This document shows, one piece after another, positions 49,841-50,653 of a stretch of DNA of 64,000 nt. Under the pieces are notes generated by a model. That model did not search any database. It was given only the letters and a program-made list of their open reading frames with translations, and was not told the DNA's origin. Numbering within the stretch: position 1 is the first letter of the stretch; every line of letters starts with the position of its first letter. Both the position numbers and the translations under genes were made by a program. Source of the DNA: Escherichia coli (GTDB lineage: Bacteria > Pseudomonadota > Gammaproteobacteria > Enterobacterales > Enterobacteriaceae); NCBI RefSeq assembly GCF_041886205.1, contig NZ_CP169029.1; one strand, written 5' to 3'.

Positions 49841-50653
49841 ATGATTTCACGCCGCCGATTTTTGCAGGCTACTGCCGCGACGATAGCCACGAGCTCAGGT
49901 TTCGGTTATATGCATTACTGTGAGCCAGGCTGGTTTGAATTAATCCGTCACCGCCTCGCCTTTTTTAAAGACAACGCAGCACCATTCAAAATTCTTTTTC
50001 TGGCCGATCTCCATTACTCTCGTTTTGTTCCTTTAAGCCTGATTTCTGACGCGATTGCTCTTGGCATAGAACAAAAGCCCGATTTGATATTACTGGGCGG
50101 CGATTACGTATTATTTGATATGTCGCTGAATTTTTCGGCGTTTAGTGACGTACTCTCCCCCCTTGCCGAATGTGCGCCGACGTTTGCCTGCTTCGGCAAC
50201 CACGATCGCCCTGTTGGTACAGAAAAAAATCACTTAATTGGCGAGACGTTGAAATCAGCGGGCATCACGGTGTTGTTTAACCAGGCTACGGTGATCGCCA
50301 CGCCGAACAGGCAATTCGAACTGGTAGGCACTGGTGACTTATGGGCCGGACAATGCAAACCGCCTCCCGCCAGCGAAGCAAATCTGCCAAGACTGATGCT
50401 GGCACATAATCCCGACAGCAAAGAAGTCATGCGTGATGAACCCTGGGATCTGATGCTGTGCGGCCATACTCACGGCGGGCAACTGCGCGTACCGTTGGTT
50501 GGTGAACCTTTTGCCCCTGTCGAAGATAAACGTTACGTCGCCGGATTAAATGCCTTTGGCGAACGACACATCTACACAACCCGTGGCGTGGGCAGTTTGT
50601 ATGGTTTGCGTCTGAACTGCCGCCCGGAAGTAACGATGCTGGAACTGGTGTAG
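49841..50653 (+). CDS. yaeI: Metallophosphoesterase YaeI with twin-arginine (Tat) signal peptide
   Basis: 270-aa ORF; N-terminal SRRRFLQATAATIATSSGFG Tat-type signal; calcineurin-like phosphoesterase motifs (GDY, GNHD, GHTH). Confidence 0.9.
   Translation: MISRRRFLQATAATIATSSGFGYMHYCEPGWFELIRHRLAFFKDNAAPFKILFLADLHYSRFVPLSLISDAIALGIEQKPDLILLGGDYVLFDMSLNFSAFSDVLSPLAECAPTFACFGNHDRPVGTEKNHLIGETLKSAGITVLFNQATVIATPNRQFELVGTGDLWAGQCKPPPASEANLPRLMLAHNPDSKEVMRDEPWDLMLCGHTHGGQLRVPLVGEPFAPVEDKRYVAGLNAFGERHIYTTRGVGSLYGLRLNCRPEVTMLELV

Follow-up and report, generated by a model that had tools for sequence, protein, structure and literature searches.

A conserved putative twin-arginine signal peptide on the metallophosphoesterase YaeI of Escherichia coli

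The yaeI gene of Escherichia coli encodes a metallophosphoesterase whose N-terminus carries a twin-arginine motif, and the locus raises the question of whether this enzyme is exported through the twin-arginine translocation (Tat) pathway, folded and loaded with its metals, or whether the arginines call for another explanation. Here we address the question on the yaeI copy contained in a window of 64,000 nucleotides, the whole stretch of E. coli DNA that was analysed. We put forward that YaeI is very probably a Tat-exported protein, the first ~22 codons of yaeI encoding a Tat signal peptide. In our reading of the aligned sequences, it is the conservation of the twin arginines, and not the motif match, that is decisive for the Tat signal.

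The yaeI locus and its metallophosphoesterase product

The gene lies between dapD (48963-49787) and yaeH (50815-51201), with glnD further upstream and with cdaR and degP downstream on the minus strand. The elements of the locus that define the gene and its start are the following.

49841..50653, plus strand: yaeI coding sequence for phosphodiesterase YaeI, 270 codons plus stop (ORF list, NCBIfam NF008460 at 530.8 bits, RefSeq annotation)
49830..49834, plus strand: putative Shine-Dalgarno-like AGGGA, 6 nt 5' of the ATG, read by eye from the sequence
49799..49828, plus strand: dapD intrinsic terminator, stem CGGGCAGC/GCTGCCCG, loop ACGAC and T-run (terminator scan)

The equivalog model NF008460 ('phosphodiesterase YaeI'; curated cut-off 188 bits) aligns residues 1-270 of the product with profile positions 2-271. 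A 1,051-bp query spanning yaeI matches two E. coli chromosomes at 100% identity, on which the RefSeq name of the gene is yaeI, and the RefSeq-annotated yaeI of ~2,000 complete E. coli genomes is 98-100% identical to the window copy. Set against known E. coli YaeI, this is the same gene, presumably b0164, and the window holds an ordinary allele that presents no difference. The names under which homologues are deposited include 'phosphodiesterase with model substrate bis-pNPP'.

The N-terminal boundary of the protein matters here, and an alternative start at M24, which would delete the signal, was considered and rejected. The N-terminal 22 residues are conserved in the family, the ATG at 49841 is the first one after the in-frame stop that precedes the gene, and hence the earliest start available to the 270-aa yaeI ORF, and the AGGGA element stands upstream of it. 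How the gene is transcribed is less apparent from the sequence. The end of the dapD terminator lies 12 nt from the yaeI start codon, and no promoter was found by a sigma-70-like scan of positions 49400-50900 or by a crude sigma-E-like scan of positions 49300-49845, so that yaeI is probably transcribed through read-through or from an unrecognised promoter. One paper assigns yaeI to the sigma-E regulon, an assignment that the sequence scan does not support, that may be a naming slip and that has no direct bearing on export.

The prospective cargo of the export pathway is a single catalytic domain.

49985..50476, plus strand: calcineurin-like metallophosphoesterase core (Pfam PF00149, residues 49-212), the fold running on to residue 270

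The Metallophos model PF00149 scores YaeI at 47.7 bits against a gathering cut-off of 21.5, and the protein carries the DxH, GDxx, GNH[DE], H and GHxH metal-binding motifs. Invariant positions among its homologues are D56, H58, G87, D88, G119, N120, H121, D122, H189 and H211, with H209 conserved in at least 90%. An AlphaFold2 model built on a 63-sequence alignment (mean pLDDT 93, pTM 0.90) places residues 4-30 in one unbroken helix, followed by an alpha/beta sandwich. Because all metal-binding motifs are present and the model is confident, a folded, cofactor-loaded YaeI is a plausible cargo.

The structural neighbours retrieved from the PDB with Foldseek were Mre11, the 5'-nucleotidases UshA/CD73, GpdQ and Rv0805 (probability 1.0, identity 12-19%, TM-scores <0.5). 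These proteins have the alpha/beta sandwich and the metal ligands in common with YaeI and differ from it in having no counterpart of its Tat leader; UshA reaches the periplasm via Sec. As a clue to the substrate, the Foldseek matches were set aside as uninformative, since they are generic metallophosphoesterases with TM-scores below 0.5, and a sequence search of the PDB with YaeI returned no match. The remark in the initial annotation that the substrate of YaeI is not established stands.

The N-terminal signal and the conservation of its arginines

The initial annotation had quoted residues 1-30 of YaeI (49841-49930) as MISRRRFLQATAATIATSSGFGYMHYCEPG and had described them as an S-R-R-x-F-L Tat motif followed by a hydrophobic stretch. 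The quoted residues match the sequence exactly and both elements are present, the motif as S3-R4-R5-R6-F7-L8 and the stretch as 21 uncharged residues, with the qualification that the latter is weakly hydrophobic. The N-terminus, MISRRRFLQATAATIATSSGFGYMHY, can be divided into the following segments.

49841..49858, plus strand: n-region of the signal, M1-R6, net charge +3 (from the sequence)
49847-49864, plus strand: S-R-R-x-F-L motif, with R4 at 49850-49852 and R5 at 49853-49855
49859..49906, plus strand: h/c-region of the signal, F7-G22 (FLQATAATIATSSGFG), uncharged and weakly hydrophobic, composed largely of Ala, Thr, Ser and Gly (hydropathy scan)
49907..49933, plus strand: Y23-x4-E28-P29-x-W31 block adjoining the h-region, with Y23, E28, P29 and W31 conserved in at least 90%

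Residues 1-31 thus read M-I-S-R-R-R in the n-region, the h/c-region listed above, and Y-M-H-Y-C-E-P-G-W from Y23 to W31. The TatP-type regular expression RR.[FGAVML][LITMVF] matches at residue 4, and Q9 takes the place of the Lys in the Tat consensus S/T-R-R-x-F-L-K. The mean Kyte-Doolittle hydropathy of F7-G22 is 0.8, below that of segments within the globular domain of YaeI itself and far under the values usual for Sec signals or stable membrane spans. The Y23-W31 block probably marks where the mature protein begins, or else lies at the membrane interface.

How much weight the motif can bear was assessed with a Tat rule that demands the same expression within the first 35 residues and at least 13 uncharged residues after it. 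Random proteins with the composition of the long ORFs of this window, which is E. coli-like, satisfy the rule in 0.33% of cases. Among the 103 six-frame window ORFs of at least 100 aa the rule also returned two matches that we rejected as false positives. One is a 473-aa ORF at 59803 on the minus strand, whose sequence looks like that of ClcA, a chloride channel; the other, of 118 aa at 35026 on the minus strand, is probably not a gene. The dedicated Tat-signal HMMs both score YaeI below their cut-offs, Pfam PF10518 at 18.5 bits (cut-off 22.7) and TIGR01409 at 16.5 bits (cut-off 16.7), both only just short of the threshold; the weak alignments fall exactly on residues 1-17 in either case, which speaks for a Tat signal. 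Given the rate of matches in random proteins, the false positives among ORFs and the sub-threshold HMMs, the motif by itself is not beyond chance. Further points that count against a Tat signal, besides the two HMM scores, are the missing A-x-A, the missing basic 'Sec-avoidance' residue in the c-region and the Gln that replaces the consensus Lys.

The picture given by homologues is more telling. Of the best 120 database relatives, 109 span the whole protein, and the TatP-type expression matches 100 of them; the nine that do not are mostly RRRRW variants, in which the RR is still there, or N-terminally cut gene calls. In a first, curated alignment of 63 homologues (43-93% identity), every sequence (63/63) has Arg at both R4 and R5, and F7 is conserved in at least 90%. 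A second alignment, of 234 sequences, extends to ~33% identity because it also takes in members of a library clustered at 50% identity, and in its non-gap cells R4 is Arg in 213/220 and R5 in 216/222 (~97%). Lys occupies the R4 and R5 columns in only 2 and 3 sequences of this alignment, whereas the adjoining R6 column holds a mixture of residues (R 75, K 28, Q 25, A 16, N 15). Since R6 drifts freely, the functional pair would be R4-R5 of the classic S/T-R-R-x-F/L-L motif. In both alignments the conservation of R4 and R5 matches that of the catalytic metal ligands. Lys appears to be selected against at the two positions, a pattern that fits recognition by Tat and not a positive-inside patch, where K is tolerated.

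The proposal of the initial annotation that a folded, metal-loaded YaeI is exported by Tat is supported at the level of sequence, with twin arginines conserved like the metal ligands and with the metal motifs in place. In the mechanism that we infer, YaeI would fold in the cytoplasm and probably acquire its binuclear metal centre there; TatBC would recognise the S-R-R-x-F-L motif through R4 and R5, and the folded protein would cross the inner membrane through the Tat translocase. Once in the periplasm, YaeI would either be freed by cleavage near G20-Y23 or stay attached to the inner membrane on its outer side, and would hydrolyse a phosphodiester or pyrophosphate substrate. YaeI contains six cysteines (residues 27, 111, 117, 172, 207 and 260), and C260 is present in all aligned family members, which is worth noting given the oxidising periplasm predicted as the location of the protein.

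A different use of the same leader would be that Sec, alone for the most part or together with Tat, exports YaeI unfolded, the metals being acquired in the periplasm. The c-region of YaeI holds no basic residue that would act in Sec avoidance, many E. coli Tat signal peptides are said to be Sec-competent when fused to unfolded reporters, and a minority of homologues carry a hydrophobic, Sec-like leader in place of the RR, so that the cargo can apparently tolerate another route. Targeting by Sec would, however, leave unexplained why R4 and R5 are near-invariant and almost never replaced by K, and an h-region hydropathy of 0.8 is far under that of typical Sec signals. We consider a mainly Sec-dependent or dual export of YaeI very unlikely, and retain Tat export as the preferred route.

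That YaeI has a Tat leader is already known from genome annotation and from the Tat literature. YaeI is commonly listed with the Tat substrates of E. coli. Reportedly, the YaeI signal peptide was among 29 E. coli candidates tried in reporter fusions, 27 of which are said to have exported a reporter via Tat. Our literature search pairing YaeI with twin-arginine returned no match. In E. coli strain 1506 (NZ_CP059288.1; positions 442-2031 of the excerpt examined) yaeI is split by an IS1X2-family element. PGAP treats the 5' fragment as a pseudogene named 'twin-arginine translocation signal domain-containing protein', and the name yaeI goes to the 3' fragment. The leader of YaeI having been captured already, its confirmation is of little consequence in itself and just tidies the record.

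Cleavage or anchoring of the leader

Whether the leader would be removed after export bears on where YaeI acts. The leader contains no A-x-A, and a (-3,-1) scan finds small-x-small sites, possible signal peptidase I sites, after S18, S19, G20 and G22. Among the homologues, 53-73% of sequences satisfy the (-3,-1) rule at each offset from -6 to 0 relative to Y23, and beyond Y23 1% do so at +1, 43% at +2 and 0% at +3. Small residues are so common in the h-region that the rule does not discriminate between sites. From these alignments, a cut, if there is any, would most likely fall at or before Y23, at a position that is not conserved.

An experimentally studied reference is YkuE of Bacillus subtilis. 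In an alignment by Tooke et al. 2017 (PMC5449189), the short homologue from E. coli is set beside YkuE and the RR motif shared by the two is boxed; the placement of YaeI in the YkuE family rests on the legend of their Figure 7 and on their text, where the E. coli protein is unnamed. According to the text of PMC5449189 that cites Monteferrante et al. 2012, YkuE is a proven Tat substrate of B. subtilis with a cleavable signal. YkuE and YaeI are both short, single-domain metallophosphoesterases with an N-terminal twin-arginine signal, and they differ in their destination: the same source (PMC5449189) describes YkuE as cleaved and electrostatically retained in the Gram-positive cell wall, whereas YaeI would be periplasmic. 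The polytopic YkuE-like metallophosphoesterases, which make dual use of Sec and Tat (PMC5449189), resemble YaeI in combining a catalytic domain with a weakly hydrophobic helix preceded by RR; upstream of it they possess three further transmembrane helices, which Sec inserts, whereas YaeI has the RR helix only.

These comparisons frame a variant of the Tat explanation, and no alternative to Tat export, in which YaeI is targeted by Tat and left uncleaved, its RR helix serving as a signal-anchor on the periplasmic face of the inner membrane. Such an arrangement would agree with the lack of an A-x-A and the scatter of small-x-small sites over the h-region at no conserved position, with the conserved aromatic/acidic block (Y23, E28, P29, W31) that adjoins the h-region, with the continuous helix predicted for residues 4-30 in the AlphaFold model, and with the longer members of the YkuE family, which insert their final, RR-preceded transmembrane helix via Tat (Tooke et al. 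2017, PMC5449189). Against it, the weakly hydrophobic stretch (KD 0.8) offers only ~16 residues, few for a stable membrane span, YkuE of B. subtilis is described in the text of PMC5449189 as cleaved, and the (-3,-1) rule can be satisfied in YaeI at G20|F21 and G22|Y23, as it is just before the Y23 column in 68% of homologues. We regard the uncleaved signal-anchor as unlikely on balance, and keep it as a live sub-hypothesis because the Y23-W31 block, conserved in at least 90%, follows the h-region directly.

Relatives without twin arginines, loss of yaeI and the side of the membrane

Some relatives of YaeI are devoid of the twin arginines. Four such members of the YaeI family (P0244, P0156, P0200 and P0231) present strongly hydrophobic N-terminal helices. 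With positions anchored on the alignment, the median N-terminal KD of the RR-less relatives is 1.76 against 1.29 in those with RR (14 RR-less sequences; Mann-Whitney p=0.04, a weak difference), and a regex-anchored version of this comparison, confounded by mis-anchoring, gave p=0.78. Individual RR-less leaders such as MRLRLYIWIFVGVVVAALFTVIGLM and MKLILSLFVFLTLSLLGYAFF are clearly more hydrophobic.

One of these relatives, P0244, is LpxG-like, scoring 305.7 bits on the LpxG model NF033458 while also passing the YaeI model. LpxG of Chlamydia, the UDP-2,3-diacylglucosamine diphosphatase of that genus, is a metallophosphoesterase that associates with the membrane and is predicted to carry a transmembrane helix at its N-terminus (Young et al. 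2016, PMC4807358), and its substrate, UDP-2,3-diacylglucosamine, is an intermediate of the cytoplasmic (Raetz) steps of lipid A synthesis (PMC4807358). LpxG and YaeI form sister families with the DxH, GD, GNHD and GHxH motifs in common, and LpxG, like YaeI, begins with an N-terminal hydrophobic helix followed by a conserved E-P-x-[WY] block. The two are set apart by the leader and by the side of the membrane, for in the LpxG-like relative the twin arginine is absent and the N-terminal helix is more hydrophobic than that of YaeI, and LpxG functions towards the cytoplasm. YaeI as a member of the LpxG family proper was rejected, for it reaches 120.8 bits on NF033458, in two partial stretches, against a cut-off of 350. 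Because LpxG acts on a cytoplasmic substrate, enzymes of this family are not confined to the far side of the inner membrane, which counts against Tat export of YaeI.

YaeI could in principle stay on the cytoplasmic side, associated with the membrane peripherally or through its N-terminus in the manner of LpxG and engaged in a lipid A or nucleotide role, the RR being a mere positive-inside patch. The 120.8 bits of YaeI on the LpxG model, the passage of P0244 on the YaeI model, the combination in LpxG of a predicted N-terminal transmembrane helix with a cytoplasmic substrate (PMC4807358) and the annotation of YaeI under lipid A biosynthesis, mentioned in a phage-screen paper, would all accord with such a placement. 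The score of YaeI nevertheless falls far under the LpxG cut-off of 350, the LpxG-like relative differs precisely in lacking the RR and in its more hydrophobic N-terminus, and a positive-inside patch would take Lys, found in only 2-3 of ~220 sequences per position. Moreover, lpxH is essential in E. coli K-12, a yaeI carrier, which means that YaeI does not supply that cytoplasmic activity. We give a cytoplasmic YaeI hardly any credence, and Tat export remains the reading on which we build.

The distribution of yaeI adds a further element. Among 5,424 matching complete E. coli genomes, only 2,079 cover at least 80% of the yaeI query, and the gene is missing in ~62%. In strains without it, such as ERL06-2442, the segment from ~49824, after the stem of the dapD terminator, to ~50670 is replaced by ~130 bp of unrelated sequence, and in ERL06-2442 yaeH follows directly after dapD. 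In a Salmonella enterica assembly (GCA_033043295.1) and in Superficieibacter electus, yaeI occupies the same place between dapD and yaeH, so that the gene looks ancestral and lost in most E. coli. In E. coli yaeI is a presence/absence polymorphism, apparently generated by loss. In a comparative-genomics preprint, yaeI figures among the orthologous groups enriched in phylogroup A.

The slot itself shows other changes. In GCA_033043295.1 (positions 4322-5056 of the excerpt examined) an extra ORF of 244 aa with no Pfam match lies between yaeI and yaeH, and an IS110-family transposase lies after yaeH; the interval between dapD and yaeH seems to be a small rearrangement hotspot. The neighbourhoods of four distant homologues (from Verrucomicrobiota, 'Eisenbacteria' and two metagenome contigs) contain no common neighbours, and genomic context among these four therefore yields no functional clue.

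Taken across the family, the relevant contrast is between RR with weak hydrophobicity, as in YaeI and YkuE, and no RR with stronger hydrophobicity, as in the LpxG-like proteins. Judging from these leaders, one catalytic domain appears to have been set on either side of the membrane, or on either export route, by a change in its N-terminal helix. A bolder extension, to which we assign a low probability, is that YaeI is the periplasm-facing counterpart of LpxG, held by an uncleaved Tat anchor on the outer side of the inner membrane and cleaving a lipid-linked or nucleotide pyrophosphate, in a role since discarded by most E. coli lineages. The sole hint of an envelope or LPS role is that yaeI transposon mutants figure among the T7-resistant hits of one screen. 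If true, the reading of YaeI as a periplasm-facing counterpart of LpxG would mean an envelope or LPS-related role for this enzyme.
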